Of a stretch of DNA of 58,362 nt, positions 362 to 58,196 are shown in pieces (the first letter of the stretch is position 1; each line of letters starts with the position of its first letter). Below the pieces are notes generated by a model that saw only the letters and a list, made by a program, of their open reading frames with translations, did not search any database and was not told the origin of the DNA. The DNA is from Rhizaria sp. SCN 62-66 (lineage: Eukaryota). The DNA lies in contig MEDY01000166.1 of NCBI GenBank assembly GCA_001724265.1, positions 1 through 58,362 on the forward strand. The letters are read 5' to 3'. The position numbers were made by a program, and so were the translations under genes.

Positions 362-392
<31 letters not shown>

Positions 393-2228: not shown

Positions 2229-2259
<31 letters not shown>

Positions 2260-37272: not shown

Positions 37273-39099
37273 TTAGTTCGCATCCTCTTTCGCAGTTTCA
37301 GCCTGCTTATTCTGCTCGCCGGAGAAATCAAAAGTCATCATGACAGGTTCCTCCTGTTCCTTAGCCTTCTTCTCCTGCTCCTCGAGCGCTTTCTCCGCGC
37401 TCTCCGCCTGCAAATCCACCTTCGTGGGACTCTCCTCAGCTTCAGCAGGAGCAGGCGCCTCCTCAGCTTCAGCAGGAGCAGGCGCTTCCGCCTTTGCCTC
37501 CTGAGTGGCAGCAGCGTCCTTGTCCTTCTTAGCAACGGCCGGAACGAGCTTGACCTCGGTCTTGTCGGCAGCCGCCTTCTCCTCGGCGATGCGCGAGACG
37601 ATGGGCAGGATGAGCGAGGTGGCCACGGCCGTGTCGCGCACGCTCGCGGGCTTGACGCGGTGCAGCTTCATCCCGATCTCGAAGTGGAAGACATTCTTGA
37701 CGACGCCATCGACGACCTCGAAGAGCTGGTACGTGCCGGACCACTGCGAGTACCCCGCCGGATTGTCCGGCGTGAGGCGCTTGAGGTCGTAGTACTCGTG
37801 CTGCGCGTTGCTCTCGGACATGGTGAGGTACGAGTAGAAGCGGATCTTGTCGGGTCCTGCGTAGGGCCCCACCACAGCCGCCTTGGTCGGCAGCAGCGCA
37901 GGCATCATCATCAGTGCGCCGCGGCGGCGGATCTTGAGCTTGCCGGGCGCGAACTTGCGCGGTGGGCGCTTGACGTCGAGCGAGAGTTCCTGGCGCGACT
38001 TTTCGTCCGGGATGTAGGACTTGGCGGCGGAGCAGTCCATGATGAGCACGCGGATGTCCCACTCGTCGAAGGCAAGCTCGGCCGGGTCCACGGCGTCCTG
38101 CACCATGAGCGGGTGCGGCAGCAGCGATTCCTCCTCGCTCTCAGGCGTCAGTCCGGCGCCGTCAGCAGAGGGCGAAAAGACCTTCTCGACGCGCGTGTCG
38201 TAGTGCGTCGCCAGGCGGTGCATGAGGCGCATGTCGGGCAGCGAGTGCATCACCAGCGCCGTGTCGTAGAAGTCGTTCATGGTCGGCGTGAGCATCGCGC
38301 CCAGCTCGCGGATGTCGCGCCAGCGGCCCAGCAGCGCCGAGTTGGGGAAAAGCACGATGAGCTCCACGAGCGACATCTCCTCGCGTCGCTCGCGCACGTA
38401 CAGCGCGTCGTAGGCCGCCGCCATCTCGGGTAGCAGCTGCAACTGGTAGGCGACCGTCATGCGCTCCATCAGCAACTCGCGCGCACGCGGCACGTCGAGC
38501 GCACCGACCTGGGCCGCCGAGAGGTCCAGCATGCCCCACACGGCCGTCTGCGCCTTGGTCAGCACGGGCGAGCGCGCGCCCTCGGAGACGATGGGCGCGA
38601 ACTTGCGCACCGTGAATGTGTCGAACCACTTGGCGAGCTTGAGGCGCAGGCGGCCGTCGAGCGTCTCGAGCACCTCGGTGGTGAGCGAGGTGATCTGCTG
38701 CTCCAGACTCGTCTCCAGCGCGGTCAGCTCAGACTTGCGCAGGTTCGTCAGAGACATCTCGATCATCGCCTCAGCGTCCTCCACGGGCATCGACATCACG
38801 TCATAGCCGGCTCCTGCGGCGGCAGCCTCAGCGGCGGTGTTTGTCGTCGAGGCGCCCGCAGCGGCGCTGCTGGTCGCGGCGGCGGACGAGGACTCGGGCT
38901 TTTTCTTGAGCTCGATGGGGGCCTTGAGGGCGCGCGCGGCAACGAACTCGGAGAGACTCTTCTCAGTTTCAGCGTCGAAGCTGGCGACCTCATTCTGAAC
39001 CTCAGCAATGTACTTGCGGCGCAGGTAGGTCACAAGGCCCGCGAGGGCCACACCGCTGGCGATCACTGCGGTACGGACACTGACTCCAGAGGACTCCAT
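37273..39099 (-). CDS. Hypothetical protein with N-terminal membrane anchor and acidic Ala/Glu tail, 608 aa
   Basis: Intronless ORF with strong GC3 bias. N-terminus MESSGVSVRTAVIASGVALAGLVTYLRRKY is a TM segment flanked by basic residues. Ends TAA TAA. No family recognised. Confidence 0.8.
   Translation of the reverse strand: MESSGVSVRTAVIASGVALAGLVTYLRRKYIAEVQNEVASFDAETEKSLSEFVAARALKAPIELKKKPESSSAAATSSAAAGASTTNTAAEAAAAGAGYDVMSMPVEDAEAMIEMSLTNLRKSELTALETSLEQQITSLTTEVLETLDGRLRLKLAKWFDTFTVRKFAPIVSEGARSPVLTKAQTAVWGMLDLSAAQVGALDVPRARELLMERMTVAYQLQLLPEMAAAYDALYVRERREEMSLVELIVLFPNSALLGRWRDIRELGAMLTPTMNDFYDTALVMHSLPDMRLMHRLATHYDTRVEKVFSPSADGAGLTPESEEESLLPHPLMVQDAVDPAELAFDEWDIRVLIMDCSAAKSYIPDEKSRQELSLDVKRPPRKFAPGKLKIRRRGALMMMPALLPTKAAVVGPYAGPDKIRFYSYLTMSESNAQHEYYDLKRLTPDNPAGYSQWSGTYQLFEVVDGVVKNVFHFEIGMKLHRVKPASVRDTAVATSLILPIVSRIAEEKAAADKTEVKLVPAVAKKDKDAAATQEAKAEAPAPAEAEEAPAPAEAEESPTKVDLQAESAEKALEEQEKKAKEQEEPVMMTFDFSGEQNKQAETAKEDAN
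37432..37485. repeat. Exact 27-bp coding tandem repeat (APAPAEAEE x2)
   Basis: ctcctcagcttcagcaggagcaggcgc twice in tandem. Confidence 0.9.
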
Positions 39100-39729
39100 G
39101 TCTGCGCACAAGGGTAGGGTGAAAGAAAATCAAGAAGATAAAGACAGGATAGCATGTAAAAAATCAAAGATATAAGTGCGCATGCTACCGGACTGCGTAT
39201 ATGACGCAGTGTTCGCATTATGCTGGCGCCGAAGAGCCGCGTCCCTATTGTCCGCCCAGACCACTTCACGAGAGCATCGCGCAACAGGATCAACACTGAT
39301 CGAAGCAGGAAAAGGCGTTGAAATAATTTGAAGTATAAAATATCACAGGATTATACGAGCATAGCGGCAGATGGACGAATTCCCTGTTTCAAGGCGCTTT
39401 CTTGAAAACGCCGGACGGTTCTTTGCCGACAGACCCACCAGCCGTTCCCTGCGCAACAAAGCAGTCACTGGAGAAAACTAGTTTCGTCACATTTTATCAA
39501 TGCAAATAAAGTCACACAAGAGATCTATCGCATCACATTGTTTAACTAGTAATGATATATGTATTTTCTAACTTGATAATTTACTAAGTCTCAGACTGCG
39601 CAGTGTGAATGCTCACATTTCTGCGCGGGTTGCTATGTATCGTTGCGCTCTCAAATGATATGAGCGCATCATTTGGTCTCTGTAAGCCGCAGAAGGCACA
39701 CCACGCGGCCTACAGCAAGCGTGCGGCAT

Positions 39730-42492
39730 TCATTGGCGCGCGCTCGCGCTGCCGTTGCGACTACTACTGTTCCTGTCGCGGTCATCACGGTCACGGCTAC
39801 GGTCGCGGCGCGGGGAGCGGGACCGTGGGCGCTGGCGCTCGCGCCGTGGCGGCGACTGCGAGCGCGAGCGCGAGAGCGAGCGCTCGCGGCGGCGCGGCGG
39901 GGCGCTGCGCTCACGGTCACGGTCACTGAGCCCACGGTCACTGCGGTCACGGCTGCGGTCACGGCTACGGTCAGCGTGGCCACGGTCGCTGCGGTCCCTG
40001 ACTTTGCGCTCACGGCTACGTTCACGGTCATGGCGGTCGCGGTCGTTGCGGTCGCGTTTACTGTCACGGCCATGGTCGCGGCTACGACTGCGGCTACGGC
40101 TACGACTACTCCGGCGACGGGCCCTGTCCCTGTCTCTGCTCCTGTCCCTGCTCCCGCTCCTGTTGCTGCTCGTGTTGCTGCTCCTGTCCTTGTCGCCGTT
40201 CCTGCTCGACTGCGGCTTGCTGCCGCTGCCACTGCTGACACGGCCCCAGGACGACGTGTGGTCGCGGTGCTCACGGCCACTCGCGCGCTCACGGTCACTC
40301 AAACGGTCACGGTCACTAAAGCGGTCACTCGCCGCGCCGCCACCGCTTGATTTGCGCTCGAAGCCGCTCGCCTTGCTCCACACCGCGCCGCCGTCGCGCT
40401 CACGGTCACTAGAGCGCTCACGGTCGCGGCCACGGTCGCTGGGGCGGCCGCGGCCGCTGCTGCTGCTGGTGCGGGCCTGGGGCCCCCACTGCGTCTGCAG
40501 CGGCCCCTGCGTCTGCTGCTGCCGCTGCTGCTGCAGCAGCTGCTCGACGATGCGCTCGCGACCCGGATGCAGCCGGAACCAGTGCAACGGTGCCGCCATG
40601 CTCCCAGCGCTCTCTGCGGCGGCGCGGTCCGCGGCGAGCGCGCGCGCGAAGGCGCCGAGGTCGGCCGCGGAGGGGTCGCGTAGCAGCGCCACCGAGTGGC
40701 ACGGGTCCGACGGCCTGAAGAAGCGGCTCCGCGCGCGCACGCACGACGAGTCCTCGGACGACTCCGAGTGCGAGTGGATGGGCGAGTGCGCCGCCGCCGA
40801 GTCCGCGGCCGAGTTGTCGTCGTCGTCCTCGTCGTCGTCGTTGCGCCGGCCGTCCACATAGGCGCACGTGAAAAGGCGTGCAAACGACGCGTGCTCCTGC
40901 TCACGGTCACGCGCGCGGTCACGCTCACGGTCACGACCACTGCCACGGCCACTGCGCTCCCGGTCACTGCGACTGCTGCGCTCACGGTCACGCGCACTGT
41001 GAGTGTCCCGGCCGCCGTCGTTGCGCTCGCTGCCGTTGCACTCAAGCGGGAAGGCGAAGACGAAGAAGGTGACGTGCGAGTACCGCAGCCGCGCCACGAA
41101 TGGCACCTCGGCCCAGTCCACCGCGCGCTCGCCACTGCCGCCGTCGCTGTTGTCGCCGCCACTGTCGCCCTGCACGGCGGCGGCCATGAGCGGCAGCACG
41201 ACCGAGTGCTCGTCGACGTTGTTGGGGCACTTAATCACGACGACGCGGCACCGGCGCCGGCTGGGGCCGCGGCAGCGGGTGGCGGGGCGGCGGACAGCGT
41301 CGGCAGCGGCCGCGTCGGTATCTGCGTCTTTGTCATTGTCAGCATCCCGCATCTGCGCCTGCACCTGCGAGTCCTGCGCCTGCGACTGCGCGTCGAGTGA
41401 GTCCGCCGAGTCCACTGAGTCCCCGGCCCCCTGTTCGCCCTCGCTCTCCCGGCGGACGGCCAGTGCGAGCTCGCCCGCGCCCAGCGCGCCCAGGCGCAGC
41501 GCAACCGCGCGCTGGAAGCGGTACTCGGGGCCGCCCCAGGGGGGGTCTGCGAACACGGCGTCGGAGCCGCGCGCGAGGCGCCGCAGCAGCGCGCCGCCGA
41601 AGCCGCCCTCGAACGCGACCACGGGCGCGTTGCCGGAGACAGAGCCGGAGCCGGAGCCGGAGCCAGCGGCAGAGCTCGAGGAAGAGAGGGCGGCGCGCGC
41701 GTCGGTGGTCTGCAGCGCCGCGTCGGTGGCGTCCGAGTCGGCGGCAGGGTCCGCGACGACGACGGGGACGCCGAAGAGCGCGAGGTTGTGGCACAGCATG
41801 CGGAAGCGCCGCGGGTCGATCTCGACGCCGTTGACGCGTGACACGTAGCGCAGGCCCGCGCGCGCAAACGAGAGCGTGTTGCCGCCCACGCACGACGTGG
41901 CGTCCGTGATCACAAAGCCCGCGGACGCAGAGGACGAGGGCGCGGACTCAGAGGAGCTGGAGCTGGAGCTGGAGAGGGGCGAAGCGCGCGGCGCGACCAG
42001 GTGCTGCGGCGCGCACAGGGCAGAGGATGACTAGCTTTTGTCGTCGTCAGCGTTGTTGTCCCTGGTGCGGCAGAGGAGCTTGACGACGAGGTTCGTGATG
42101 TCGTCTGCGTTAGCTTGGTCAGAGACCGAGTACTTGGCCTCCTCGTCCATGAGCAGCGCCTCGCGCTGCGCCGCGCTGGCCTTGCCCCAGAGGTGCTAAG
42201 ACTTGGTCCCCACAGCCAGCTCGTCTTTCAGCAGGCGCGCCGAGATGGGGTGGCACTCCCAGAGAAGGCCGTGCAGGTGCGCGGCGGCGCGCTCGGCGTC
42301 GGCGGGCGAGCGCAGCGAGACGCGGCACAGTTGCCGGCTCAGCCCCGTCTCGCGGTCGCGCAGGATCTCCACCCTGTGGATCACCACGCCACCGGGCACC
42401 GTCTGCACCACCGCTTCAACGTCAGACTCCGTCGCCGTCGGCGGGATGTTGCGCAGGGTCAGCTTGTACTCGACGTACTGGCCGCCGCTCAT
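39730..42492 (-). CDS. RRM + RNA cap guanine-N2 methyltransferase (Tgs-like) + RS/RD-rich domain, 920 aa, containing two in-frame TAG codons
   Basis: One continuous frame from ATG 42492 to TGA 39730 if TAG at 42198-42196 and 42033-42031 are sense. RRM: KLTLRNIPPTATESDV...ILRDRETGLSRQLCRVSL...AERAAAHLHG. Tgs motifs: MDEEAKYSVSD (between the two TAGs), ITDATSCVGGNTLSFA, VNGVEIDP, VFADPPWGGPEY and IKCPNN. C-terminal RS/RD dipeptide repeats. Confidence 0.85.
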
Positions 42493-43423
42493 GACACTCC
42501 CTGTCACTGTTGGGATAGTGTTGAGATGAAGATGATTGGAGAGGATAGAAAACATTGCGTGAAATTTAATTAAATGAGAACAGTTTAAAACTAATATTAT
42601 AACTAAATCAAACGCATAAAGTTCGAACCACTGAACAGGTGTTGCAGTGGGCTCGTCTAATTTTCCGCAGATTTCCTCGCCTTCTTTGTGGCTGGACAGC
42701 CACAAACGCTGAAACGCGAAGGTCAGTGTAAATCCATTGATATCAAGGGTATTTTGGGCTTAGTCTTGACTTATCTCGACTATTTCCCTATGTAATGCGT
42801 GTTTATAGTAGTGAAATCTTTTTTTAAAGTCTTTTGGTGAGGTTCATGAGTATACATTTGATTTGCTTGCCTCACGCATTGCACATGTGACGCTGCTGAG
42901 ACACCAAGAGCCGTTCTGCAAGTACATGTACACAGCAGAGATACAACATCATAAGACACAGCAGAGCGCAAATAACGTGAATAAGCAATGTCATTGTGTA
43001 TTATTCACTCGAGCAGCTAATAATACATTGTATCAGCACAAGCAGCCACGGTGACTGCGTGCGACACGGAGAGAAAAAGTGAGAGACCAACGAGTGATGA
43101 ACAGACAGACATAGAATTAATACCAAAAGACAAAGGAACTACAGACGTTGCTTTTCGGTTGGCTAGCCCATTAGCTGGCTAGGACAATGAATGTACGAAC
43201 AATAGACAGACACGGAGACACGTACGTACACATGCAATGGTGAGAGTTTAGGTAAATAGCGCAATGCAAAATATCGAACAAAGAGTTGACAAAAGCACAT
43301 GAGAAAAGAAAAATAGACGGATACACACTAAATTAATATAACCAATAATGGCCAAATAACAACGAACTTAACATATAATTACGACTCAGCCTGATGCGCT
43401 TCCCTATTGTCAAGCTTGCCAGT

Positions 43424-46082
43424 TTACCAGGGCCCAGTGAGCTCGTTGGTGACCATGATGGCAATAAAAGCGAGGTAGAAGCCAACCATTGCAAGTCCGT
43501 AGGTACGCGGCGGCTTGTAGCTCCAGGCCCAGAAGGCTACCATGTGCGCGAGAACGCCGGCCGAGACGGCACCCCACGTGATGACGACCTGCTGCGTCAC
43601 CGCGAAGGTCACGGGCGTGGGGAACTGCTGGAGACACGTGAGAAGCATGGGCGCGCCCAGCCCCACGAGCGTGGTGAGCAGTGGCGACGCGAAGACGGAT
43701 GCGAAGGCCAGCTGCGCGTGCCCCGCGCGCGCCAGCGCCGTGTTGGCGACGAAGTCGGGGATGGAGTTGCCGACGGCGAGCACGGTGAGGCCCAGGATCG
43801 CGGTCGACACGTCGAGCACGACGCCGACGGCCTGCAGCGCGGCGACGACCTCGTTCGAGATGAGCACCATCCAGGCGACGCAGCCGCCGAAGGTGAGCAG
43901 CGCGCAGAAGGTCTTAAAGGCCACGGCCACGCGCGGCAGCCAGTCGTCGTCCTCCAGCTCCGCCTCGGCCTCGGCCACGGCCGCCGAGACGGAGGCCGAC
44001 GCCGCGGCCGCGCCCATCGAGGACGCGGCCGCGGTCGCCGCCGTCAGCTCCGAGTCGTGCCGGCGCCCGCGCCCCAGCCCGTTACCGTTACCGTTGTGTC
44101 CGTGGCCGTGGGAGCCCTGGAGCGAGCCAGCCGCACCGGGCAGCGCGCCCGCAGCGCCGGCGCCGGCGAGGCCGTGTCCGTGGCCGCTGCTGCTAACCGC
44201 GGAGCGCGCGACGAGCTCGGTGAGCGCGCGGTCATACGCGCGGGCGACGGCGGGCAGCAGCCAGCAGTAGTAGACGAGCGCCATGAGCACCGCGACGACG
44301 GCGCCGCCCAGAGCGGCCACGGCGGCGCGCGGCAGCCCGCCCAGCGCGGGCGTGGCCAGGTCGTCGCCGTCGAAGGCCAGCATTGCGAGCAGCGAGAGCG
44401 GGACCGGCGCGCAGAGCCCCAGCAGGCGCTTGGCGGGACCCCAGAGGTCGGGCCGCACGTGCATCGACGGCAGCGTGAGCCACCGCAGCAGCGAGAAGGG
44501 CAGCTCGAAGGCGAACTGGAGCTTGAAAAAGGCGCGCGCGGCGGGCGCGGCCTCAGCCCAGGAAGGGTGTGGGTACGAGAGGCCCGCGAGGAAGGTGGCG
44601 TGGTCAATGCCGTCGTCCTCCTCCTCGACGTAGTCCTCCTCCTCGTCCGCGGCCGCGGCCGCGCCCAGGCTGCCCACCGCAGGGCCGCCGTCGCTGGCGC
44701 CGCTGGCGCCGAGGGGCCCGTCGTCGGTGCCGTCGGAGAGCAGCAGCGCGGCGCGGAGTGACTCGCCGCGCCGCAGCTCGCGGCGGTGCGTCGCAACCGA
44801 CACGCCGCGCGCGCGGGCGGCGTCGCGCTCGGCGCGGGACTTGCGGCAGCGCTTGATCTGGATAACGACCACGACGGCGGCGACGTAGGCCACGTAGAGC
44901 ACAAGCAGCGAGCCCGCCTCATAGGCGTTGACGCGCCCGTTGTGGAAGGTCCAGAAGACGGTGCCGAGCGAGACGGCGTAGGCGAGGATGTCGCGCCAGA
45001 AGCCGCTCTTGTTGAGCTTGCCCGTGGACACGGCAATGGTGGTGCCCGCAACAAGCCCCATGATGCAGACGCCCGCGCCAATGATGGCACCCAGTAGCAG
45101 CGGCACGTCGTCTGCGGCCAGCGCGGCCAGCGCGGAGAAGATGTCCGGCGCGCCGTTGCCGAAAGCCAGGAAGGTCATGCCTGCGACCGAGGGTGAGAGG
45201 TTGAGCAGGCGCGACATGACCGTGAGCGCGGGCACGAAGAAGTGGTCCGCCGTGGTGGCCAGCAGCGAGAGCGTGACGAGCAGCACGAGCAGCATGATGC
45301 CCACGAAGCCGGCCGTCGCGGCGGGGCTGCGTCCGTTGGCCAGCACGCAGTAGCGCAGCTTGAGGAAGTTCACCAGGTTCTCCGTCTCGCAGTGCTGCCG
45401 CACAAACAGACACGGGTCCTCCTTGTGGTCGATAAACTCGCACGGAACCTCGTCGTCGTCATTGTCGTCGTCAGCAGCGCCGGCGGCGTCAGCGGCGTCG
45501 CTGGCGCTGGCGGTGCGGAAGCCGACGGAGGCCTGCTTGACGTGGCCGCCGATGTTCTTCTTGTTCTTCTGGCCCTGCTTCAGGCCGTGGGGCGCCGCGG
45601 CGCTGCCGCTGGCCAGCGCGAGGGGGCTGAACTCGAGTCCGCGCGGCGTGAGCGGCTCCTGCGCCGCCTCGAAGCGGCCGACGACGAGCCCGGCGACGGC
45701 GCTCAACAGCGTCGGCCGCGGGGCGCGCTGCACGGAGCGCGGCGAGAGCGAGAAGCCCGCGCCAACGCGGCCAAACATGCCCGTGTAGGCCAGCAGCGCG
45801 ACCAAGCACAGCACGGCCGCCGCGCTCGTCGCTGAAAAGTGCGAGAGATATGCGAGTGGCGAGCGACGGGAGGAGTGGGTGGTCGACAGAAAATATGAAT
45901 TTAACAAGGACGAGCTTACGATAACGATATTTAAGTTGTAAAAACTCATCAAAACATTGACAGAAACACAAAATCTCAACATAAATCTCTTTCAAAGAAC
46001 ATTGTAGAGCTGGGAGACGATGCCGAATCGTACCTCGGAAGATGGAAGGAGACTTTCTCTTGGCGCCTAGAATTGGCGACAT
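43424..46082 (-). CDS. Cation/Ca2+ exchanger (CCX / NCLX-NCKX6 type), 818 aa, 2 exons
   Basis: Exons 46082-46034 and 45831-43424 (intron 45832-46033). Alpha-1 repeat AGMTFLAFGNGAPDIFS, alpha-2 repeat LGLTVLAVGNSIPDFVAN, TADHFFVPAL, the N-terminal Cys motif C.FVRQHC...NFLKLRYC, and multiple TM helices. TAA stop. Confidence 0.9.
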
Positions 46083-46495
46083 GTCTGCCTGAAGAAAGAG
46101 TGCGCAAGAGGTGTGAAAAAAATGAGAGAAATAAAAACACTACAGAAATTCAAAACACAAACTTCTTGACAACTTGGCGTTCGTTTTGTGGAATAATTTA
46201 CAATATCGATGTGTCCGTATCATTGCTATCTTGAGAAGACCAGAGACGTCGTCACGCCAGAAACTGCAGAAACGGATCAAAGGACAATATTGAAGATATA
46301 TCCATCGGACAAAAGCGTGGCAACATTTCCGGATAGTGTTGTATAGATAACAAAGTACTGTATCTTAAAACAGGTGCTAAAGTAACATTGGTAAAGATTT
46401 TGGCCACAAGCCCGCGTCAGAAGCGCGCTCCACCACAAACGATGTTCGATTGCGGACGCAGTGACATGCTACAGGTTTTGGCTGCGGCTGGTCGC

Positions 46496-49400
46496 TCAGC
46501 CGTAGATGCGGTGGATGTTCTCGAGCGTGAGCTTGCGGCGGCACTTGGGGCACTCCTTGCGCAGCGCCACCGCGCGCCGAATACACGAGTTGCAAAACAA
46601 GTGGCCGCAGCTAGATTGCGCGAGTTGCATGAGTTCAACAGGAGGCACAGGAGGGAAAGGATGTGTGAGCCAGAGAAACTAGAGATATGGGATAAAATAA
46701 TGCAAATATAGACAAGAAAAGCATACAAATAACAAATAAGCAAATCTATCGCACGCATTTTCAACATCACAAAAGAAACAAATGACGATGAATATATCCC
46801 TAGTTGGCAGCGTACCTGGTGGTGCTGATGTCCTCGACGCAGCTCAGACACACGGCGCACTCGAGGCGGCGGCGCATCTGGTCCAGCACCGTCCCGTTGT
46901 CAGCGGGCTCCTCGCCCTCGTCGCCGTCGCCGTTGCTGTTGCTGTTGCTGCTGCTGCTGCCAAGGCCGCTTCCGGCGGCGGCGGCAGCGGCGACGGCGGC
47001 GGCGGCGGCGGCTGCGGCGTTGGCGACATCCGCGCGCACGCCGTTGACAACGATGGGCTGCGCATGCGGCAAAACAACCTCGGACGCCTCCAGCACGTCG
47101 TCATCGTCATCGTCGTCAGCGATGGTGGAGGAAGCGAAGCCGACGGACGGCATGCCGCGCCTGCTCCTCGCAGCAGCAGCAGCGGCAGCGGGGTTCGCCG
47201 GCCGCCGCGCCCCCGGGCCCGCGCCGACCGCGGCGCCAGAGCTGACGCCGAGGCCGGCGCCAAGGCCGGCGCTGGCCGCGTTGCGCCGGCGCGAGGCAGC
47301 CCCCTGCGGCTGCGGCCCCAGCTCCTGGCCCTGCTCCTGGCCCTGGCCGCGGAGGTCCCTGGCGACGAGCGCGCCGCCCTCAGTGAGCGCTAGGGGACCC
47401 GCGTAGTCGAGCGGCAGGCCCAGCGCGTGCATGCGCAGCCGCCGCTCCCCCACGCTCTCGCCAGCGAGGCCGCTGGCGTCGAGGGCGCCGGCCACGAGGC
47501 GCGGGGCCTGCCGGGGCGGCAGCAACTGTGATTGGAGCTGTGGGTGGGACTGGGAAGAGAGCTGCTGCGCTGCAAGCGCGCGCTGCACCGACTGGTACAC
47601 GCTCAGGGGCGACGCGAGGCCGGGGCCGCTGCCGCCGCCGCCGCTGCTGCTGCTGCTGCTGTTGCTGTTGTTATTGTTATTGTCGCCCCCAGCAGCAGCA
47701 GCAGCAGCAGCTGTCGTCTGAGCATTCGCGTCAACGCTACTGCTGTTGCTGTTGCTGCTGCTGCTGCGGCCGTGCTCAGCAAGCGACGCGATCAGCATCG
47801 CGCGCGTCGCTGCAGCCGCCGCCGCCGCCTCAGCCTCGGCCGCCGCGGCCGCATCTGTCCCAGCGCCCGCGCCCGCGCCCGCGCCCGCGTTGGCGCCCCC
47901 GGAAGCGCGAGCTGTGCTGGCGGGCAGGTCTGGCATAAGGCGCCACTCAGGCTCGCCGGGCCGCCGGCCAAAGTAGCCCGCCGGGAGCGGCCGCGGGGAC
48001 GGCCCCTGCTGCGGGGCAGCTAAGCCGTCCGCACCGACCGCGTCCGCAGCACCTGCCGCGTCTGCCTCGCCGTCGCCGTCGCCGCCGTCGTCGCCGCCGT
48101 CGTCGCCGTCATCGTCGTCCGAGTCGTCGACCTCGATGGGGCAGTCCGCGCTGGTAACGGGGAAGCGCGCCCGCGAGAGCGTCCTGCGCGCGGTGAGGCG
48201 GCCCGCGTAGTCAGTCAGCGCGGCTTCGAGCCCGCGCACGCGCTGCAGGTACGCGGCGCCGATGGCCTTGAGCGAGTCCAGCGGCAGCTCCGCGCGCAGC
48301 CGCGGCGGCAGGAACAGCGGCAACAGCGACGCCGGCGGCGGCTGCGACGCCTGCGGCAGCGGCGGCGGCGGCGGCGAGGCCAGCAGCGGCAGCGCCGCGC
48401 CGGGCGTCGCCGTCAGCTGCGGCTGCGCCTCGTAATAGGCCAGCAGCGACTCCACCGACTGCGCCGACTGCAGCGACTGCGGAGGCAGCGACGCCTGCAG
48501 CTGCGAGGGGGCGGGGGCGGGGTACATGTGGGGCAGCGTCGAGTAGATGGGCACCAGCAGGTCGCGGCCATGCGGGGGCTGAAAGCCGTGGCCGTGGATG
48601 TGGCCGTGGAGGTGACCGTGAGCGGAAGCAGCAGCCGAGTGAGCGTAATGGTGATGATGATGCTGTAGCTGCTGCTGCTGCAGCTGTTGGCGCTGCTGCT
48701 GCAGCTGCCGCTGGCGGGGCGCCGCGACGACCGTCTCCGTGATCACCAAGTCGTCGTCGTCGTCGTCGTCGCCGGTGAAAGTCGCACGCGCGTGGACGGG
48801 CGGAGCGTCGGCCGGGACCGGGCCGGCGGCAGGGCGGGCGTCGTCGTCGGTGCTAGATGAGGAAACGTTGTCCCCCGTTGGCTTATCCGAGCCCTGACGC
48901 TGCTGCTGCTGCTGCTGCTGCCTGTCGTAGTGCTGCTGCCGCAGCTGCAGCGCGCGCGCCACAGCATCGCCGAAGGGGACCCCGGTCCCGGCCCCAGCGC
49001 CAGCAGCGGCGTCTGATTCCGAGTCCGCCTCCGCCTCCGCGGCGGCGGCGGCGGCGGCCGCGGTGCGCTGCCCTCGCTGTCGCTGCTGCTCGAGCATGAG
49101 CTGCCGCCGCTGCCGCTGCAGCTCCTGCTGCTGCTGCTGCTCCAGCTAGCGCTCGCGCTCGCGGACCTCGGCGGGGGCGTCTTCCAGCTGCGGCGGCCCC
49201 TCGTCGTCGAGATTGTCGTCAAGGTCACCGCCGGCATTGTCGGTGTCGTAGCCGTCGTCACTGCTCCCATTCGCAGCAGGGGCGGCGGCGGCGCTGGCGG
49301 CACCAGGCTCGGCCGCAACACCCGCACCCGCACCCGCACTCACACCCGCAGCGGCAGCGGCAGTGGCAGCGGCAGCGGCAGCGGCAGCGGCGGCTGTGAG

Positions 49401-49733
49401 AGCCTGAGCGTTTGAATCGCTCCGGGCTGCGTCGCTTGCGGCGCCATGAGGCATTGTCGCCGCACCTGCGACACTCGCATCGGCAGACGCGTCGGCAGAC
49501 GCATTGGCAGCTGCGGAGGCGGCCGCAGAGGCATCTGAGGCTGGGGGCACTGAATCGGCGGCCAAGACCGAGTCCGTCATCAGCACACCTGCCACCGCAC
49601 TCGCGGTCTCAGCAGCGGCGTCAGCAGTGTCAGCGGACGACGGCGGCAGCGGCGGCGGCAGCGGCGGCGAGTTGCAGTTGTGTGCTGCAACAGCCGGGCC
49701 CGGCGCGGGGGCGTCGGCAGAGAGCTCCGACAT
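46496..49733 (-). CDS. C-terminal C3HC4 RING E3 ligase, RNF4/STUbL-like, 1010 aa, 2 exons, one in-frame TAG
   Basis: Exons 49733-46816 (TAG at 49148-49146) and 46610-46496. Intron 46611-46815 (GTACGC...TAG) splits the RING: CAVCLSCVEDISTTS|CGHLFCNSCIRRAVALRKECPKCRRKLTLENIHRIYG, TGA stop. SIM-like hydrophobic/acidic patches DDDDLVITETVV and CPIEVDDSDDD. Confidence 0.82.
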
Positions 49734-50496
49734 GGGTCTGCGCGGGGCGACAAAGGCGGGAAGGGAAACGCGTGCTCCAGTATGCGGTGTCCAAGTGGGG
49801 CCGCGAGGCAGAAAGAGGATAGTGCTGTGGCGAGGTTGGGGCGAGGGGCGGGATGTTTGGTGTTAGGTGGTGGAGGTGAGTTAAAGAAACCAAGAGTATG
49901 ACAGGGATGATCAAGTAATGGCAGTATATAATTTTGATATTATTAGGAGTAACACATATACTTTATGATCATGGACACATCCATTCTAGTGACGATCATT
50001 AGTCCGCGCATCCTGGAGGCAATGTGCTGAAAAGCACAGCGCGCTTTCGGTGTTGTCCAGCTTATCGAATGAAGTCATGGGCACGCACACTGTCCTCAGG
50101 CAAACAGGCTTTAAGCAGAGAGAGCTCAAACGTGCGCGGATAAAAGGAATTCACAACGCGTTGCATGCTGAGGGTCATCATGCTTGACTGTATGTCACTT
50201 TTACGAGACCTGACGTTGCGGTCAGTCTGGGACGGCCCGCGCCACAATTCGCGATCACTCGGCGCATTTGGTTTTTAACATAGTTATCGCAATGAGGACA
50301 TCGTCACCGAAGATATCACTTGTATTTTTTGAGTCACACGTATAATTTATATATTCTCACAAAATAATAACTTGCCAATTGCAGCCCTCGTCTCAGATCT
50401 GACCGCGCGCAGCACCTCTAAACTCTGTGCGCTTCTCAGTGCTCCAAACTGACCAACCCAGCTGCGTGCCTGCTCACAACGTCCGCGCGCTCTGCA

Positions 50497-52324
50497 ATGA
50501 GTGCCCCGCGTTTTGTCGGCGTTGCTACTGGCAGCGCCGGCGCCGCAACCGCCCCGTCCTTCGGTCCCCAGCCCGCCGCGAGCCACAACGCTTGCGCCGT
50601 TGTCAATGCCACCGCTGCCACAGCTGCTGCGACAGTTGCTGCGACAGCGGCGACTGCGAGCGCGACCGGCGCGTTCGCGGCGGTCGAGGTCGACTACCCG
50701 CTGTTCTGCGCGTGGGCGCTGGCGGCCGGCGCCGCGGCCGCGGCCCCGCAGCTGCCGCCCAACTGCCCCGACTACGACTTCGCACCCCTCCTCTCTGCGT
50801 CCGTTTCAGCGGCGCCGCCTGCGCTGCGCGCTCTGCCGCTGCGCGTGTTGGCGGCGCTGCTGGAGCTGCTGTGCTCGCAGTGGGCCGTTGAGGACGCGGC
50901 GCAGCTGGCCAGGCTCTGCGCGCGCAACGCCACGGCGGCCACGCCCCTCGATCGCCGCGCCGGCGCCGTCGCCGCCCTGGCCGGGCTCGTCGCGCGCGCC
51001 CCAGACGCGGCACCCGCGCCCGCGCCTGCGAGTGCGCATGCGTGTGCGAGCGTAAGACAGTACGTGCTGTCGCGCGTGCCGTGTGCTCTGGGCGTGCCGT
51101 CGCTGGCCGCCGCCGTGCAGCCCCGCCTCGCGCGGGCCGCGCACAACCCGTACGGCGCCAACCGCCGTCTCCGTGACGATGATAACGACGACGCTGCTGC
51201 TGGAGACGAGGAGGCTACGGAGCCCTCTGCGATGCAGGACATCATCATCACCGTCCCTCCGACGGCAGCTACAGCAGCCGCAGCAGCTGCGGCAGCGGCG
51301 TCATCAGCGGCATCGCCAGGCGCCCCGGTGTTGAGCGCTCTGGACGGCGCGGGCGCGGACGACGAGGCGCGCGCGCGCGTGCTGCTGCTGTTTGCGGTGC
51401 AGTGCTCGCCCGACTCGGTCTTCGCGGCCGCCCAGCACCACGCGGCCATCAACGCCGTCCGCTACAACACCTACAGCCTTGTGCGCGCGCCCCCGCTTCC
51501 CGGCGGCGGCGGCAGCGGCGCGGCGGTGGCTGCAGTCGGCGGCGGCCACGGGGTGGACCTGTACCTTGAGCCCAACGATGACGCCGGCAATGATGACGAC
51601 GACGACGACGATGATGATGATGGTGGGAATGCACGGTATGGCGGCGGCGACAGCGACGAGGACGAGCGCAGGCTGCGCGCGCGCGTCGCCAAGGCGAAGG
51701 CTAAGAAGGTTAAGAAGGCTCAAGCGAAGAAGGCTGATTCGGCGAAGAAGGCTGTGGCGGAGCGGGGGGGCGTCGCGCGCGTGCGGCGCGGCCCCTTCGG
51801 CACCATCGACGGCGGCGGCTTCGCGCTGGACCAGGACGACGAGGCGGTGGCGCGCGAGAGCCGACTCGTCAACCGGGCCGGCGAGGTCGAGGAGCGCGAT
51901 GAGGAGTACTGCAGCAACGATGACGACAGCGGGCTCAGCGAAGATGACAACGACGATGATAATGATGTTAGCGCCGCTCACGCTGTTGTCCCCGCCCCCG
52001 CTGCGACTGCGCTTATGCCTGCAGCGACTGCGCTGTCCCGCGACGCCCCGCGGCGGCACGGCGCGCGGTGCCCGCTGCGGCGCGGCGGCGATCCCGCGCT
52101 GCGGCTGCAGCTGCAGACGGAGCCCGGCGCGCTGGCTGCGCTCGCGCTCCTCGGCCACTGCCGCTGCGCGCGCCGCGCCGCTCTCCTGCGCGCCGCCGTC
52201 GCCATAGCCGGCAGCGGCGCTAGCAGCACCCATAACAGCAGCAGCAGTAGCGGCGACACCAACGCTGCCATCGCTGCTGCCACGCTCGCCACAATCGCCG
52301 ACAACAACAACGAAAAGAAGAAGT

Positions 52325-52355
<31 letters not shown>

Positions 52356-55300
52356 AGCTGTTGTTGTGAAGCAGCGGCCCCTGCGCGCGATTGGTGCCCG
52401 GCTGCGTGCCGGCCGACGCCTTGCCGCGGCCTGGCTCGCCCTGCTCGCCGCCGCCGTCCCGCGCTGGGCCGCGCTCGACGCTGCCGCTGCGGCTGCCGCT
52501 GCCTCTGTCTCTGCACAGAGCAGCGCGCAGTCGAGTGCGCAGAGCAGTGCGTGGGCGCGGGCGACGGCGCTGACGGCCGCGCACACTCTGCTGGCGCTGG
52601 CGCCGCGGCCGCTTCACGGCGACTGGCTGCCCTTCGCCGCGGATCCGCTCAACGCCGCGCACGCGCCCTGGGCGCTCTGCGCCGCCGCCGAGGTCGACGC
52701 GGCCTCCGTTGCGCTCGCGCCCGCGCAGAGCCCGAGCTCGACCGCGACCGCGCCCGATGATGCGACCGAGGACGTGACGGCGGGGGCGGTGCCGGAGCTG
52801 CTGGCGCGCGTGTGGGGCGGCCTCGCACGCGCGCTGCGACTGCCCTGCTCTCGGCCGCACACAGCAACGATGACAGCGCTCACGTCGGCCGCCACGGCGA
52901 CGACTGCGCGGCCAGTGCGCGTCCCTGCGCGCGTCTCCGCGCGCGTCGCAGTGGCCGCCTTCCTGTTCCCCCACCTGGCCGTCGCGGTGCGGCCCTTCCT
53001 GCGCGCGCGCCGGCTGCAGACGCACGCGCACGCCGCCGCATTCGACCTCGAGGACAACGCCGCGCCCGCGCGCAAGCTACTGCAGCAACAGTCGCAGGCT
53101 GAGCGCGCCACCGCGGCCGCGGAGCGCGCACTGCTTACGGTCACCTCGACGGGCCCCGAGGCGGCCAGCAGCCTCCAGTTCAATGCGCAGGCCTACCGGG
53201 CCATCGCGCGGCGCGCCAACGAGGCCGCCGCCGCTGCTGCTGCGCGTGCTGCTGCCTCCACTGCTGGAGCTGCTGGCAATGCTGATGCTGCTGGTGCTGG
53301 CGCTCGAGAGAGGGCGGCGCGTGGCGCTAAGGGCGTTGCGCAGCCATCTAAGGGGGATGCGCGGGCCACTAAGGGGGTCGACGGAGACCTCGATCTCGAC
53401 TTGCTGTTGCAGCAGGAACAACAACAACAGCAGCAGCAAGAGCATGAGCCAGAGCTCGAGCTGGACACGAGCAACGCCACCAGCGGCAGCAGCGGCCGCC
53501 GCACTGCTCTGACCGCCGCCCCCGTCACTGCCGCCGCCGCTGCTGCTGCTGCTGCTTATGCCCCGGTACCGTCGCTCCTGCCGCTGGTGCCGCGCGGCGG
53601 CCTCCTCCTCAGCGTCCTTCCCGGCGCTGGGGCCAGCGCCGGCGACGGCGTGCAGCTGGCGCTGCGCGGGCTTGCGCCGCTGCTGGCGCAGGCCGTGGCG
53701 CCGCACGCGGCCGCGGACGCCGTGGCACAATCGCTCGCGCACAACGCGCAGCACGCCGCAGGCCCGCGCGCGGCCGATGCGGACCGGCTGCGGCGCGCGC
53801 TCAGGGCCGACGCAGAGGCCGGCGCCGCCGCCGCGCAGCGCACGGCGCGCCGGCTCGCCAGGGCCGCGCGGGCCGCGGCCGAGACCGCTGCTACTGCGGA
53901 GGCTGTGGCTACTGCTGCTGATAAGACGGAGGCACATGGTGTCGACGCTGCCGATTCCAACACGAACAGTGAAAATGCCATTGCAGTTGCATCTGCTGCT
54001 GGTACGACCTCTGGTTTCAGCGCCGCCTCCGAGGCCGAGGCCGCGTACGCGCTCTACAAAGCCTACCTGCCGGCGTACACGGCGCCCTTCACGTCCTTCG
54101 CGCTGGCCGCGCTGGCTGTGCCCGGGCTCTTGACGGCCTCGGGCGCTGCCGCTGTCGAGTCCGCGCCCGACACGGAGCCTACGGTCGCCTCGGCCTCGGG
54201 CGCGGCCGCCGCGGCCGCCGCCGTCGCCGCCGCGGTGGCCGCGACCCTCGGCGGCAGCAGCGTTGTAGACGGTGATGACGACAGCGGCACTCAAGGCAAG
54301 GCGTTTTGGGGTTGTTTCGAGAGCGCCCGCTCGCTCCTGCCCGCTAACGCCAACAACGACTGCAAGGCTCTCTCGGGGCAACAGCAGCAGCAAGACCAAG
54401 CGCAGTCCCGGAATCTCTTGTTCGCGCTGCCGCGCATGGACGCGTCCTGGCTGACCGCGCCGCTGCGCGCGCTGTCGGCCGCGCTCCGCGGGAGTAGCTA
54501 CTCGCCGCACGCGCCGCTGCCCACCGCGCACAACGCGCCTGCGCTCGCACTCGCCTTCACCGGCGGCGGTGGCAGTGCGGACTCCGCGTCTGCGACCTCG
54601 ACGGCGCTCGCGTCTGCGGCCTCTGCCGCGGCGGCAGCGGCGGGCCTGGGCGCGGCGGGCGCGTCATCGCTTGCGCTCGCGCACGAGTCCGTGCAGCCCT
54701 TCTGGCAGGCCTTCCACACGCCCGCGCTCGTCGCCACCGAGGCGCTCACCGCCGCGGCCGCCGCCAGGCACGCCGAGTCTGAGCAAGCCGCTGAGAGCGC
54801 AGAGACTGCAGAGAGCGGTGAGGACACTGCAGTGCGTTTTGTGCGGCGCTCGCAGTGGGCGTGGTGGCGGCTGGTGCCGACGGTGACGCTCGCGGCGCCG
54901 CTGGTGCTGCCGCTGCTGTCGGACCCGCGCGCGCTGCCGCACAAGCTGCGTGGCGTGGCTGCGCTGCCCGCGCTGTTGGCGCTGTACCCCTCGGCCCGCT
55001 TCGCGCGCGCCGGGCTCGACGCCGTGCTGCTCGACGCGCTGGACCGGGCACTGGGCGCGCGCGACGCCACGCCCTTCTACGGCGCGCTGGTGCGCGCGCT
55101 CGTGGCCGGCGTCGAGGCGCTCGCGCCCGCCAGCGACGCGGCCGAGGCCGCCGCCGCGCTCGCGCCCGTTGCCGCCGCCGTCGGCTTCCTCCGGCTTGCA
55201 CATCAGCAGCAACAGCAGCAGCAGCAGACAGGGACCGAGACTGCGGGCCAGCCTGGTCCTGCGGACAGCCTCAGCCTCAGCCTCAGCCACGGCAGCGGTG

Positions 55301-57564
55301 CCAGTGGCGGTGACTCGGCGTGGAGCGCAGCTTGGCGCGACCACGGGCCCGAGCCCGAGCCCGGCGCGCTAGCGCTGCTGCACGGCGCCGGCGGCCACGG
55401 CGGCCGCGCGGCCGCCGAGGACGCGCAGGCCGCGTCGGCCTCGGCAGCCGCGACCGCGCTGAGCGCTGTCGCGAGCGGCGGCGGCGGCGAGCTGGTGCCG
55501 GGCCTCGGCGCGCTGACGCCTGCGCTCTGCGCGCGCGCAGCGGCCCTCGCCCGCGCCCACTTCCGCTCTCCCCCCGTCTAGCAGCAGGCCGGCGCCGCTG
55601 CCACTGAGAGCGGCGCGGTGGCCGCTGCTGCGACAACGGAGCGCGCTGTGGTAGCGCTTGTGTCGGACCCCGCCGCGCTGGCCGACGCGCTCTGCACCGC
55701 GGCCTTCGACCCCGCGGCCGCGCTCGCCAGCATCGCCAAAGATCAGGACAGCGGCAACAGCAACAATAACGCGGTGTCCGTGGCTGCGGCGGCGACCCGC
55801 GCGCGCGCGCTGCGGCGGCGGCTGACGGAGTCGCTGCTGCGCGAGCTGCAGCACAGCGCGCTGGGGGCCGACGGCGCGCCCGACGACAACCTCAACGCGC
55901 TGGGGCTGGGCATCGGGCTCGCGGGCCAGGGCCGCGGGCTCTCGGACCCCGCTGCCGTGGCCTCGGTGCTGCTCGCGCACCTGGCCGCGCTGCGCGGCGC
56001 CGCGGCCGCCGGGCCCGGGGGGTTGCGCGCGTCGCTCGACTCGGGCCACTTCGCGTGCTCGTTATCCCTGCTCCACCCCACCAGCAAGCGCAGCAACGAT
56101 GGCGATAACGGCAACGCCACGTCTGCTGCGGCGGTCGTGGTGCGCGTGCCGCCGCTGCCGACGCGGCTGGAGCACCTGCGCGCGCTGGCGCAGTGCTCGC
56201 CGCTGCTGGTCTCCGCGCTGGAGCCCTCGGAGCGGGCCGCGTACGCGACGCAGCTGCTGCCGCCGCTTCTGCGGCTGGCGACGCACCAGGACTACCTGGT
56301 CCGCGCGCCCGCGCTGCACGGCGCCGCGCTGCTGTGCGCGCTGCTGGGCCCGGCGCTGGCCCCCGCCACAGGCCGCGCCGCGCTCGAGGCGCTGCTGGCG
56401 GCGCTGCTGCGCACCTGTGACGGCGACTGGGTCTCGGGCGTGGCTGCGGCGCGCTACGGCGTGCGCGGCTGGGTCGGCGCCGACGTCGTCGTGCAGCTCG
56501 ACCTCGTCAACAGCGCCATCGCGCGCGCGCAGCGGGGCGAGCGGCACGGCGGCAGCGGCCGCAGCGCTGTCAGGGGCGGCCGTGGCTCTGGCGAGGACGA
56601 CGCTGACGCCGTCGCGGTCCGGGCCGAGGCCCCCGCAGTGGCCGCCCGGTTCGGAGTGCCGCTTTCGGCCCTCGCGGGCGTCAGGCTCACTGGACTCGGC
56701 GCCGACTCCGACTCCGACTCTGAAGCCGAGACTAACACTGACACGGACGCCGAGTCTGTGCGCGCGATCGACGCCGTTCTGGCGCGCGCCGCCGCCGAGA
56801 ACGACTACTTCGTCCCGAACATGAGTGTTAAGACCAGCATTCACGACTCTGTCGCTGTGCCGCCGTCGAATGCGCCGCTGGCGGTGCGCGCTGCGGCGGC
56901 GCGACGCGCGCTGCGGCGGCAGGCCTGGGCGGTGCGCGCGCGCGAGCGGGCCACCGCCGTTGCCAAGGGGCTGGCCGAGGCCTCGCGGGACGACGCGCTG
57001 CTCCGCGCTGATATCCTCTCGCAGCGCGCAGTCGCGCAGCAGCAGGCTCAGCAGCAGCCGTTGCAGGCGCCGTCCGCGGACTCGATCGCGGAACAGCTGC
57101 GGCGGCTCGAGGTCGCGCAGCAGCTGGGCTCCGGCGCGGGCGGCGCGGCGGGCGCGGACGCCGACGAGAAGCGCGTGCTGGCGCTCCTGCAGGACAGTAA
57201 GGAGACGCGCGAGCGCGACGCCGCGGCCGTGCTGGGCGACCTAGAGCTCTCGCCGCAGCGCCGGCGCCTGCTGCTGGCCGTGGTTGCGGCCGAGGTCGAG
57301 GCCACGCGGCTGCTGCTTGCGCGCGCGGTCACGGTGCTGCTGACGCTGTGCGGGCTGGAGCCGGAGCTGCTGCGCGGCATCGCCGACGCGCAGACGCTCG
57401 ACGCGCTGCAGACGCTGCCGGGCGATGTCGGCAACCGCGGTGGGATTCCAGCCAAATCAAAGGGCGCGTTCGTGCTGGGCGAGGTGTCGCGCTTCGTGGA
57501 CACCGTGCTGAGGGCTGTGGACGAGTTTTTTGCCGAAGGGGACGATGATGAGGACAATCTCTAA
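50497..57564 (+). CDS. Large Ala-rich helical (HEAT/ARM-like) protein of unknown function, 2355 aa, one in-frame TAG
   Basis: ORFs 50497-55581 and 55618-57564 are in the same frame with unchanged coding-type composition across TAG 55579-55581 (GTC TAG CAG CAG GCC). HEAT-like segment LLPPLLRLATHQDYLVRAPALHGAALLCALL. TAA stop followed by AT-rich 3' sequence. Confidence 0.75.
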
Positions 57565-58196
57565 GACGGATGCTATGATCGCAGGGTTAATTTATTCTAT
57601 TATGATGCCTTCAGCTGAACTTGTCAGCAGGTGTCAAAAAAATAATAAACAATGTGATAAGACCAGAGCCTAATGTGTACATTGTTTGTAGACTGTCTCG
57701 TCTAACGTTATGAAATGCGTTTTCACTGACACTCTTTCTGTGACGATAACAGATCAGTCCTTGAAAGCAGAGTAAACTCAATCAGTCTTCTACTCAGTAT
57801 CGATCGAGCACCAAGCGATAGGTGCAGCCTCACAACGATAACGCGTGTTTTGAAGGATCACCGGTTCCATCCCACTAAATCCGTCAGAAATACATAATGC
57901 CAGTCTCATATGATATGATTGTAAAAGGCAAAACTACCTCGTTTCACAAATTCTAGGGGCCGCAACTGAGGAACTATTATGAGATCTAGATGAAAAGGTT
58001 GTTGCCGAATATATGACATGCGTTCAATGACACTAACATCAACAGAAGTACCTAAATTTGGAATGTACACGTACTACATGTTATACATCAAGCGTGATTC
58101 TGTGTTGTTGAAAGAAACATGGTATGTATGGAGCTATTACTTGCTAAATTGCGTGCTTACGAGGACGTGTTCGTGAACGGTTTTGGAGTGTTGCAC

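Follow-up and report, generated by a model that had tools for sequence, protein, structure and literature searches.

Four in-frame UAG codons in three genes of an uncultured activated-sludge eukaryote: possible translation of a stop codon

Nuclear genetic codes in which UAG and UAA differ in meaning are known from only a handful of lineages, according to two studies among others (Panek et al. 2017, PMC5304391; McGowan et al. 2024, PMC11687900). As described in the first of these, only UAG is reassigned in Iotanema spirale (UAG=Gln) and in the rhizarian exLh (UAG=Leu), and UAA and UGA are kept as stops. The genes of exLh end with UAA (56) or UGA (15), 384 in-frame UAGs occur in 71 of them, and in certain classes of genes Leu is encoded largely by UAG (PMC5304391). 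In phyllopharyngean ciliates, found by mining metagenome-derived genomes, UAG is widespread as a sense codon for Leu or Gln, UAA is the preferred stop, and suppressor tRNAs have been identified (PMC11687900). Ambiguous stop/sense codes are described in Condylostoma, Parduczia, karyorelicts and Blastocrithidia, where one codon is both a common sense codon and a terminator. Stop codons can also be bypassed in single genes by programmed readthrough, for example in leaky UAG-C contexts.

Here we analyzed a window of 58,362 nucleotides, the whole stretch of DNA under study, in which GC reaches about 75% in the exons, against AT-rich introns and spacers. Within the best explanation of the data, the DNA is nuclear and comes from an uncultured eukaryote of bioreactor and wastewater communities. 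Like Iotanema and exLh, this locus has in-frame UAG only and gene ends with only UAA and UGA (here 8 and 3), and like exLh it belongs to an uncultured protist known from sequence data alone. Unlike exLh, it has 4 UAGs in ~14,350 codons, 3% of the compositional expectation, with no consistent aligned residue. A sainouroid rhizarian similar to exLh was considered as the source and found to be without support, and UAG use is far commoner in exLh. With the phyllopharyngean ciliates it shares UAA as the dominant terminator and a metagenomic origin, and it would share the uncoupling of UAG from UAA. It differs from them in that its exons are GC-rich, its genes long and conventional, with introns that have GTAC donors, and its UAG very rare; by the look of the window, the organism would not be a ciliate. 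As in the ambiguous codes, a stop appears to be translated inside genes and termination works at the ends; the local context differs here between the in-frame TAGs and the real terminators, whereas TAG is here never a terminator (0/11) and is very rare in frame. A resemblance to programmed readthrough is the C that follows three of the four TAGs, and it is conceivable that TAG1, exactly between two domains, yields short and long isoforms; however, the sites number four, of which one is polymorphic, and are spread over three unrelated genes, and no motif common to the four is visible in the 12 nt downstream. Among the papers listed by literature searches, none dealt with a UAG reassignment in a wastewater or activated-sludge eukaryote.

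Coding continuity across the four TAG codons

The four in-frame TAGs in three genes reported in the earlier note were all recovered (Table 1). They join open stretches of 187+54+766, 238+781 and 1719+660 codons, each series in one frame; gene A, for instance, is a single frame that contains TAG1 and TAG2 and terminates with TGA at 39732-39730. The same-frame GC-rich coding sequence claimed for both sides of each TAG was borne out by two measures. GC3 in the TAG frame was 0.85-0.95 on both sides of all TAGs, and a codon-usage score whose training set was confined to TAG-free genes (7,861 codons) placed the TAG frame at the top of the six frames, upstream and downstream (flanks of 50 and 150 codons), at 4/4 sites.

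Table 1. Features of the TAG-bearing region, in window positions
Feature	Position	Strand	Description
Gene A	39730..42492	-	RRM, cap guanine-N2 methyltransferase-like domain and long RS/RD-rich tail (translation, Pfam)
TAG1	42196..42198	-	Gene A, between the RRM and methyltransferase parts
TAG2	42031..42033	-	Gene A, lineage-specific low-complexity insert; polymorphic
Exchanger gene	43424..45778	-	Na/Ca-exchanger family, between genes A and B (Pfam Na_Ca_ex, E 6e-38)
Gene B	46496..49733	-	Low-complexity protein with C-terminal RING finger (RING read from the sequence itself)
Gene B parts	exon 1 49733-46816; intron 46815-46611; exon 2 46610-46496	-	Intron GTACGC...CTAG; gene end TGA
TAG3	49146..49148	-	Gene B, 195 codons past the ATG; ERER[TAG]LEQQQQQ, ahead of a Gln/Arg-rich stretch
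Gene C	50497..57564	+	2,355-codon Ala-rich protein without known family, end TAA, carries TAG4 (translation)
TAG4	55579..55581	+	Gene C; PPV[TAG]QQAG, CAG CAG directly after

Among the 14,352 modelled codons of the window, TAG occurred four times in frame, and TAA and TGA did not occur. Genes A, B and C contained no frameshift, TAA or TGA in ~4,250 codons, and no in-frame TAG was found in the other ~10,100. The exchanger gene, which served as an internal control, had no in-frame stop in 784 codons and ended with TAA. In-frame UAG within coding, conserved sequence, as in a UAG-only code, was thus observed at a very low frequency (4/14,352). Stops within coding sequence exceed chance; an excess over chance was not shown for TAG specifically. 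Two further candidates were discarded during this analysis: TGA 16024-16026, the one other in-frame stop between long open reading frames, and TAG 34348-34346 both sit in ordinary AT-rich introns. The open reading frame 12465-13793, taken for a saposin-like gene, belongs to the ligase gene as its exon 1 (DNA_ligase_A_N), and its TAA is intronic.

Gene A matched RRM_1 (E 1.3e-4) and Methyltransf_15 (E 1.9e-8) in Pfam, and its relative P0007 carries both an RRM and a methyltransferase in one uninterrupted protein of 542 aa; a protein search with the N-terminal part gave two distant fragments. TAG1 lies within a conserved block, K-x-[TAG]-x-L-[F/W], which spans the codon in 3/3 protein homologs and in 13/13 metagenome loci whose match reaches the block. 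In the TAG1 column, the three proteins have D, and the 13 loci have D (6), K (3), N (3) or L (1). TAG2 lies upstream of the SAM-binding motif (VITDATSCVGGNTLSFA), in an insert without homolog. Since the SAM-binding and PPWGGPEY motifs are located downstream of both TAGs, with no ATG between TAG2 and these motifs, gene A function needs readthrough. A metagenome scan, the second one (alignment A1), returned 80 loci, among which only L003 came from the same organism; it is 100% identical to window positions 39953-42526 and adds nothing independent. The other loci of that scan included no close relative and had no in-frame stop within their matches.

Exon 1 of gene B alone gave no Pfam match at E<=0.01, and neither TAG3 nor TAG4 had an alignable homolog in the protein searches. 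Residues 1400-2355 of gene C found no match in a protein search, and an all-against-all HMMER comparison recovered just its own fragment and its only relative, P0011. This protein matches gene C at 1909-2018 (E 3e-18) and also, weakly and colinearly, at 1301-1438 (E 0.049), so that its matches flank TAG4. Gene C has a single conserved segment, which is downstream of TAG4, so the function of this gene also needs readthrough. In the public protein collection, the sole entries are fragments, one of 727 aa for gene A that begins after TAG2 and one of 638 aa for gene C that follows TAG4. Genes of this kind are split by gene callers, and the genome annotation of the organism would as a result be systematically wrong.

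Other searches bore on the identity of the organism. No relative was found by scanning metagenomes with the exchanger protein or by scanning viral contigs. A scan of prokaryote genomes with a WDR1 exon produced two bacterial WD40 loci, which were rejected as relatives; one (L002) has uniform GC and a WD40 translation, and the other (L001) is from a bacterial MAG with 25% identity, judged from the listing. Protein-cluster look-ups gave no lineage clue beyond generic WD40 and DNAJC7 clusters.

Three of the four TAG codons recurred in other samples. Contigs of another sample (X2/X3) carry TAG1, TAG2 and TAG4 with no differences from the window, including one (55301-57600) that spans TAG4. The samples X1 and X2/X3 and the locus L003 probably all derive from a single reactor population, so they do not count as independent. 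A 2025 run from a different study, ten years later (X4), kept TAG1, and its contig 41780-42346 has T for A at 42033, which turns the TAG2 codon into AAG (Lys). This was the sole difference in the eight listed X4 pieces, 5,432 nt in total, and, with AAG in that population, TAG2 may be a recent mutation. None of the contigs listed for the other runs reached TAG3.

Gene ends, stop-codon frequency and introns

The earlier note had read all 11 visible gene ends as TAA or TGA, and this held: 8 were TAA, 3 TGA and none TAG. Simple arithmetic gives this comparison little power, since such a result is ~9-30% likely under the standard code if 10-20% of terminators are TAG. The base following the in-frame TAGs was C, T, C and C, and a purine followed 10 of the 11 real terminators. 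Frequent use of one codon as both sense codon and terminator, typical of an ambiguous code, was not observed in this small sample (0/11 TAG ends, 0 TAA or TGA in 14,352 codons).

The in-frame counts expected from codon-position composition were 128 for TAG, 14 for TAA and 13 for TGA. The observed/expected ratio for TAG was therefore 0.03 (4 vs 128, ~30-fold rarer than expected), when ordinary codons ranged from 0.26 to 1.6. TAG is actively avoided in frame, and a ratio so far under that of any ordinary codon is what one would predict were UAG still to carry a cost. The rarity of TAG had been attributed to its being a minor A/T-rich synonymous codon, an explanation that is not supported, given that TAG ends in the favored G and falls so far below compositional expectation that GC bias is not the reason. 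At the same ratio, TAA and TGA would each be expected ~0.4 times in frame, so that their absence is uninformative. That absence consequently lends no support to the proposed uncoupling of UAG from UAA and UGA. Under a model of random nonsense changes in these codons, 73% produce TAG and a 4/4 result has p ~0.28; the TAG-only pattern is thus not significant and would be seen as readily with nonsense alleles as with an altered code.

The six introns checked were 134-205 nt long, with a GC content of 0.32-0.45 and GTAC donors, and two of them end in CTAG. Consistent with what had been noted previously, no intron of the genome's ordinary type (GTAC donor, AG acceptor, AT-rich, ~130-200 nt) was found to hide any of the TAGs. 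Splicing from the only GTAC sites upstream of TAG1 and TAG2 would cost the protein its RRM or the invariant YS motif, besides changing the reading frame. A span of 600 nt held no GTAC donor for TAG3, and the single GTAC of TAG4, at -595, is inside GC-rich coding sequence. In the polyA RNA library X5, contigs were detected to either side of the TAGs in gene A and in gene C, and the spacer 42685-43281 had none; among the contigs listed, none crossed a TAG at any of the four sites. These gaps, at the TAGs and on the spacer, speak neither for nor against splicing at the TAGs.

Competing explanations

Under the standard code, the TAGs would be true premature stops. The genes could be pseudogenes of very recent origin, or they could carry nonsense alleles that are fixed or, if the organism is a clonal diploid or polyploid, heterozygous, the TAG haplotype being the one assembled. 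We consider this unlikely, although it is a live competitor and several observations agree with it: TAG is the easiest stop to reach by single-base changes from this codon usage, TAG3 and TAG4 adjoin CAG runs and are one C>T step away from CAG, TAG2 has the look of a recent mutation in its comparison with X4, TAG is 30-fold under its compositional prediction, and all but one of the TAGs sit in sequence that is poorly conserved and of low complexity. However, it implies that 3 of 11 genes were knocked out within 18 kb, two of them losing their only recognizable domain, and that this decay left codon bias intact on both sides and no frameshift, TAA or TGA; judging from general indel-to-substitution ratios, decay that produced four nonsense changes should have produced several indels. 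The retention of TAG1 in populations ten years apart and the lack of TAG at gene ends also argue against it. A poorer prospect is that termination is context-dependent or leaky for all three stops, TAG being the one seen because, on composition, TAA and TGA are each about ten times less likely. The uninformative absence of the latter two and the pyrimidines after in-frame TAGs, as opposed to purines after terminators, would fit; in contrast, TAA and TGA both terminate genes and TAG does not, ambiguous codes, as described, use the same codons as sense and stop, and nothing positive points to TAA or TGA in frame.

It is very unlikely that UAG never reaches the ribosome, the TAGs being removed by GC-rich or very short introns or by RNA editing. 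The RNA contigs listed leave all four sites uncovered, and the sequence at TAG4 (...ctctccccccgtcTAG|CAG) resembles an acceptor, and two checked introns end in CTAG; but there is no usable GTAC donor, the surroundings of every TAG score as coding in the TAG frame, the residues on either side of TAG1 align with homologs, and all introns seen are AT-rich and of 134-205 nt. We know of no nuclear U-to-C or U-to-A mRNA editing system that repairs stops. Least probable of all is an assembly or sequencing error or a chimeric contig: the window is a metagenome contig and TAG3 is unconfirmed in another run, yet separately assembled contigs reproduce TAG1, TAG2 and TAG4 with no differences, another study reproduces TAG1, and substitutions that always create an in-frame TAG should not arise from any known error mode.

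A possible early stage of UAG reassignment

The continuity of coding sequence, the absence of the usual intron and the recurrence of TAG1, TAG2 and TAG4 indicate that UAG is probably read through or translated. That UAG is translated rather than read as a stop in this organism is the best reading of the data, and we hold it with moderate confidence, four codons being not yet proof. The suggestion of the earlier note that UAG is a sense codon thus stands as regards the position of the TAGs, inside continuous coding sequence and outside the genome's intron type, and not as regards its assignment to Gln or its account of rarity. The Gln assignment is without comparative support: TAG1 aligns to D, N, K or L, TAG2 to Lys in a sister strain, and Gln was never observed. 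The CAG runs beside TAG3 and TAG4 would fit an origin from CAG, and a nonsense mutation would fit them equally; Gln is only one candidate for the inserted residue.

According to the mechanism we propose, UAG would fail to end translation, or would end it inefficiently, and UAA and UGA would end genes. With an amino acid added by the ribosome at each of the four TAGs, the RRM-methyltransferase, RING and 2,355-residue proteins would all be made at full length. The decoder may be a tRNA that reads UAG, with a cognate CUA anticodon or as a near-cognate, possibly alongside weak recognition of UAG by eRF1; no tRNA genes were found in the window with ARAGORN or Rfam, and the eRF1 gene lies outside it. 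With UAG at ~3% of its compositional prediction, its state can be read as an early or inefficient stop-to-sense stage, or as an organism-wide leaky UAG, rather than as an established synonymous codon. Our more specific proposal, which is tentative and could easily prove wrong, is that a reassignment specific to UAG has recently begun in a GC-rich activated-sludge eukaryote with introns, probably not a ciliate, in which UAG has been purged from gene ends, occurs in frame at ~3% of expectation and mostly before a pyrimidine, and is turning over between populations (TAG vs AAG at one site in ten years).

Each uncoupled code tests how eRF1 and tRNAs permit UAG and UAA to split in meaning. If confirmed, the present case would bring in a further lineage, one whose exons are strongly GC-rich, and its very low usage of UAG would bear on how reassignment starts, by codon capture or through an ambiguous intermediate. 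If the early-stage reading is true, this organism would offer a natural example of the ambiguous-intermediate stage postulated by theories of code change, one that can be reached through public wastewater data.

Origin and composition of the DNA

The window is a metagenome contig, and nearly all of its sequence recurs in DNA runs from bioreactors and wastewater; parts of it are also contained in the activated-sludge runs of a later study, a polyA RNA library among them. Its exons have a GC content of approximately 70-77%, with GC3 near 0.9, and its introns and spacers of 32-45%. The six introns checked are 134-205 nt long, with GTAC as the donor and (C/T)AG as the acceptor. Pfam searches identified a DNAJC7-like TPR plus DnaJ gene, a Na/Ca-exchanger gene and the DNA-ligase N-terminal exon of a giant ligase gene, and WDR1 and RPL19 were recognisable in the translated sequence. 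From these genes, the GTAC-donor introns and the exon/intron GC contrast, we conclude that the window is nuclear DNA of a eukaryote. The donor, GTAC(G/C), is nearly invariant in the window, and the contrast of exons (~75% GC) with introns and spacers is extreme; both features could aid the binning and taxonomic placement of the organism.

The ligase-like gene far exceeds an ordinary DNA ligase IV in length. Its first exon is followed by at least one AT-rich intron and then by a 3,728-codon open frame with many low-complexity Ala/Gly/Asn runs. In the submitted stretches of four other genes, all of which score well, no Pfam family was found at E ≤ 0.001; for the gene at 32186-35713, which is Cys-rich in its upstream part, the scan covered the downstream part (32189-34345). 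Within that coverage, the labels saposin-like and TSP1/EGF proposed in an earlier note, made from the sequence alone, were not confirmed.

Positions of the genes, in-frame TAGs and checked introns
Feature	Position	Strand	Remark
Gene A	39730-42492	-	RRM-methyltransferase
TAG1	42196-42198	-	gene A
TAG2	42031-42033	-	gene A
Gene B	46496-49733	-
TAG3	49146-49148	-	gene B
Gene C	50497-57564	+	Ala-rich, 2,355 codons
TAG4	55579-55581	+	gene C
Ligase-like gene	12465-27213	+
Ligase-like gene, exon 1	ORF 12465-13793	+	DNA_ligase_A_N, Pfam E 1.7e-18
Gene	28526-29893	+	no Pfam family
Gene	32186-35713	-	no Pfam family in 32189-34345
Gene	37273-39129	-	no Pfam family
Gene	2-5590	-	no Pfam family
Intron	about 11638-11434
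Intron	about 11006-10861
Intron	about 10362-10229
Intron	about 15987-16176		ligase-like gene
Intron	about 46815-46611
Intron	about 34469-34318

Coding evidence at the four in-frame TAGs

The positions previously reported for the four TAGs were all exact, and at each of them two open stretches of one frame meet. Since long antisense ORFs are frequent in this GC-rich DNA, ORF length alone is weak evidence, and coding was therefore tested directly. Using a codon score trained on 7,861 codons, taken only from genes without any TAG, we observed that the TAG frame ranked top of six both upstream and downstream of all four sites, with flanks of 50 as well as 150 codons. GC3 is maintained at 0.85-0.95 across every site, which, together with the codon score, agrees with the earlier claim of same-frame GC-rich coding on both flanks. 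The 14,352 modelled codons of the window include four TAGs, with neither TAA nor TGA. Two further stops beside long ORFs, TGA 16024 and TAG 34346, were rejected as in-frame cases, as they sit in ordinary AT-rich introns.

Codon-position composition predicts 128 TAG, 14 TAA and 13 TGA, so that TAG is present at 3% of expectation; the observed/expected ratios of the ordinary codons checked were 0.26-1.6. This rarity had been attributed to TAG being a minor A/T-rich codon. That explanation fails: G, the third base of TAG, is the one preferred at codon ends, and the neighbouring codons TAC, TGG and TTG occur commonly. At the ratio of TAG, the expected in-frame count is roughly 0.4 for TAA and likewise for TGA, and thus finding none does not single out UAG. 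As to the proposed uncoupling of UAG from UAA and UGA, the 11 gene ends are TAA (8) or TGA (3) and none is TAG; on this basis, an effect specific to UAG is suggestive only. The base after the in-frame TAGs is C, T, C and C, and a purine follows 10 of the 11 true terminators; the four pyrimidines fit weak termination contexts.

The TAG-bearing genes and the residue at UAG

Gene A is the most informative of the TAG-bearing genes. Its RRM (Pfam E 1.3e-4) precedes a domain resembling cap guanine-N2 methyltransferases (E 1.9e-8), after which comes a tail rich in RS/RD; a distant relative in another assembly, P0007, has both domains in a single uninterrupted protein of 542 residues. TAG1 lies within a conserved block at the start of the methyltransferase part, and both of its flanks align in 3/3 protein homologs and in all 13 of the metagenome loci with a match extending to TAG1. 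TAG2 is in a low-complexity insert absent from the homologs, upstream of the SAM-binding motif, with no ATG between the two. Given these locations, a working enzyme would need both TAGs to be translated.

Within the Methyltransf_15 family, the gene-A-type methyltransferases form a separate branch that has a conserved N-terminal block of its own. Their N-terminal partners vary by lineage: an RRM in gene A (42492-42196) and P0007, and, in the relatives P0008 and P0009, a WW or protein kinase domain. In addition, one contig each of run X4 (DNA) and run X5 (polyA RNA) has a 3-base deletion at 40411 relative to the window, an in-frame length polymorphism that lies downstream of TAG1 and TAG2, in the RS/RD-rich tail.

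For gene C, a single relative, P0011, was found among 1.84 billion representatives; its match is strong on the downstream side of TAG4 (E 3e-18) and weak, although colinear, on the upstream side (E 0.049). The ATG of gene B is 195 codons ahead of TAG3, and the start of this gene adjoins a 760-nt AT-richer spacer common to gene C.

At TAG1 the three protein homologs have D, and the 13 loci have D (6), K (3), N (3) or L (1); at TAG2 the sister population represented by X4 has Lys. The earlier assignment to Gln, for which the runs of CAG downstream of TAG3 and TAG4 are the sole pointer, is unsupported: these runs indicate a likely origin of the two TAGs from CAG by C>T change, and not what UAG means.

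Alternative readings and the preferred one

Removal of the TAGs at the RNA level seems very unlikely. The earlier note had claimed that no GTAC donor could skip the TAGs. In the analysis, no GTAC donor could remove any of the four without a frame shift and loss of the RRM or of the Tyr-Ser pair that is invariant in the methyltransferase block, and there is no GTAC within 600 nt of TAG3. RNA contigs flank the TAGs of genes A and C on both sides, leaving the TAGs themselves uncovered, so splicing and editing are excluded by sequence logic alone. That the TAGs are errors is hardly credible. Contigs of run X2, from another sample, contain TAG1, TAG2 and TAG4 with zero differences; X2 and X3, although filed under different studies and years, give contigs identical in length, depth and ends over the whole stretch; they are a single data set with two entries and were counted once. 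In X4, a run of another study dating from a decade afterwards, one contig retains TAG1 but reads AAG at the position of TAG2; the eight X4 pieces listed, which total 5,432 nt, show no other difference. The JGI contig L003 is identical to the window and probably comes from the same population.

The main rival, of rather low probability, is that the TAGs are genuine nonsense alleles in an organism with the standard code. The rarity of TAG and the TAG/AAG polymorphism favor it, as does mutational accessibility: given the codons that these genes use, 73% of the single-base stop-creating changes yield TAG, so that under plain nonsense mutation four TAGs out of four have p ~0.28. However, 3 of 11 genes would be affected, frameshifts and other stops are absent, and TAG1 has persisted over a decade. 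A general context-dependent code appears less probable still. The best reading, which we favor by a modest degree, has this organism translating UAG as a costly, rarely used codon. Of the earlier proposal of UAG as a sense codon, the location of the TAGs in real coding sequence stands and their translation is probable; Gln is unsupported, and the explanation of rarity fails.

This state of UAG could represent a reassignment that is at an early stage or inefficient, or else a UAG that is leaky throughout the organism. UAG usage in the known UAG-only codes (Iotanema, the rhizarian exLh and phyllopharyngean ciliates) is much higher than in the window. If real, this would be an additional UAG-only code, in an unusual low-usage state.
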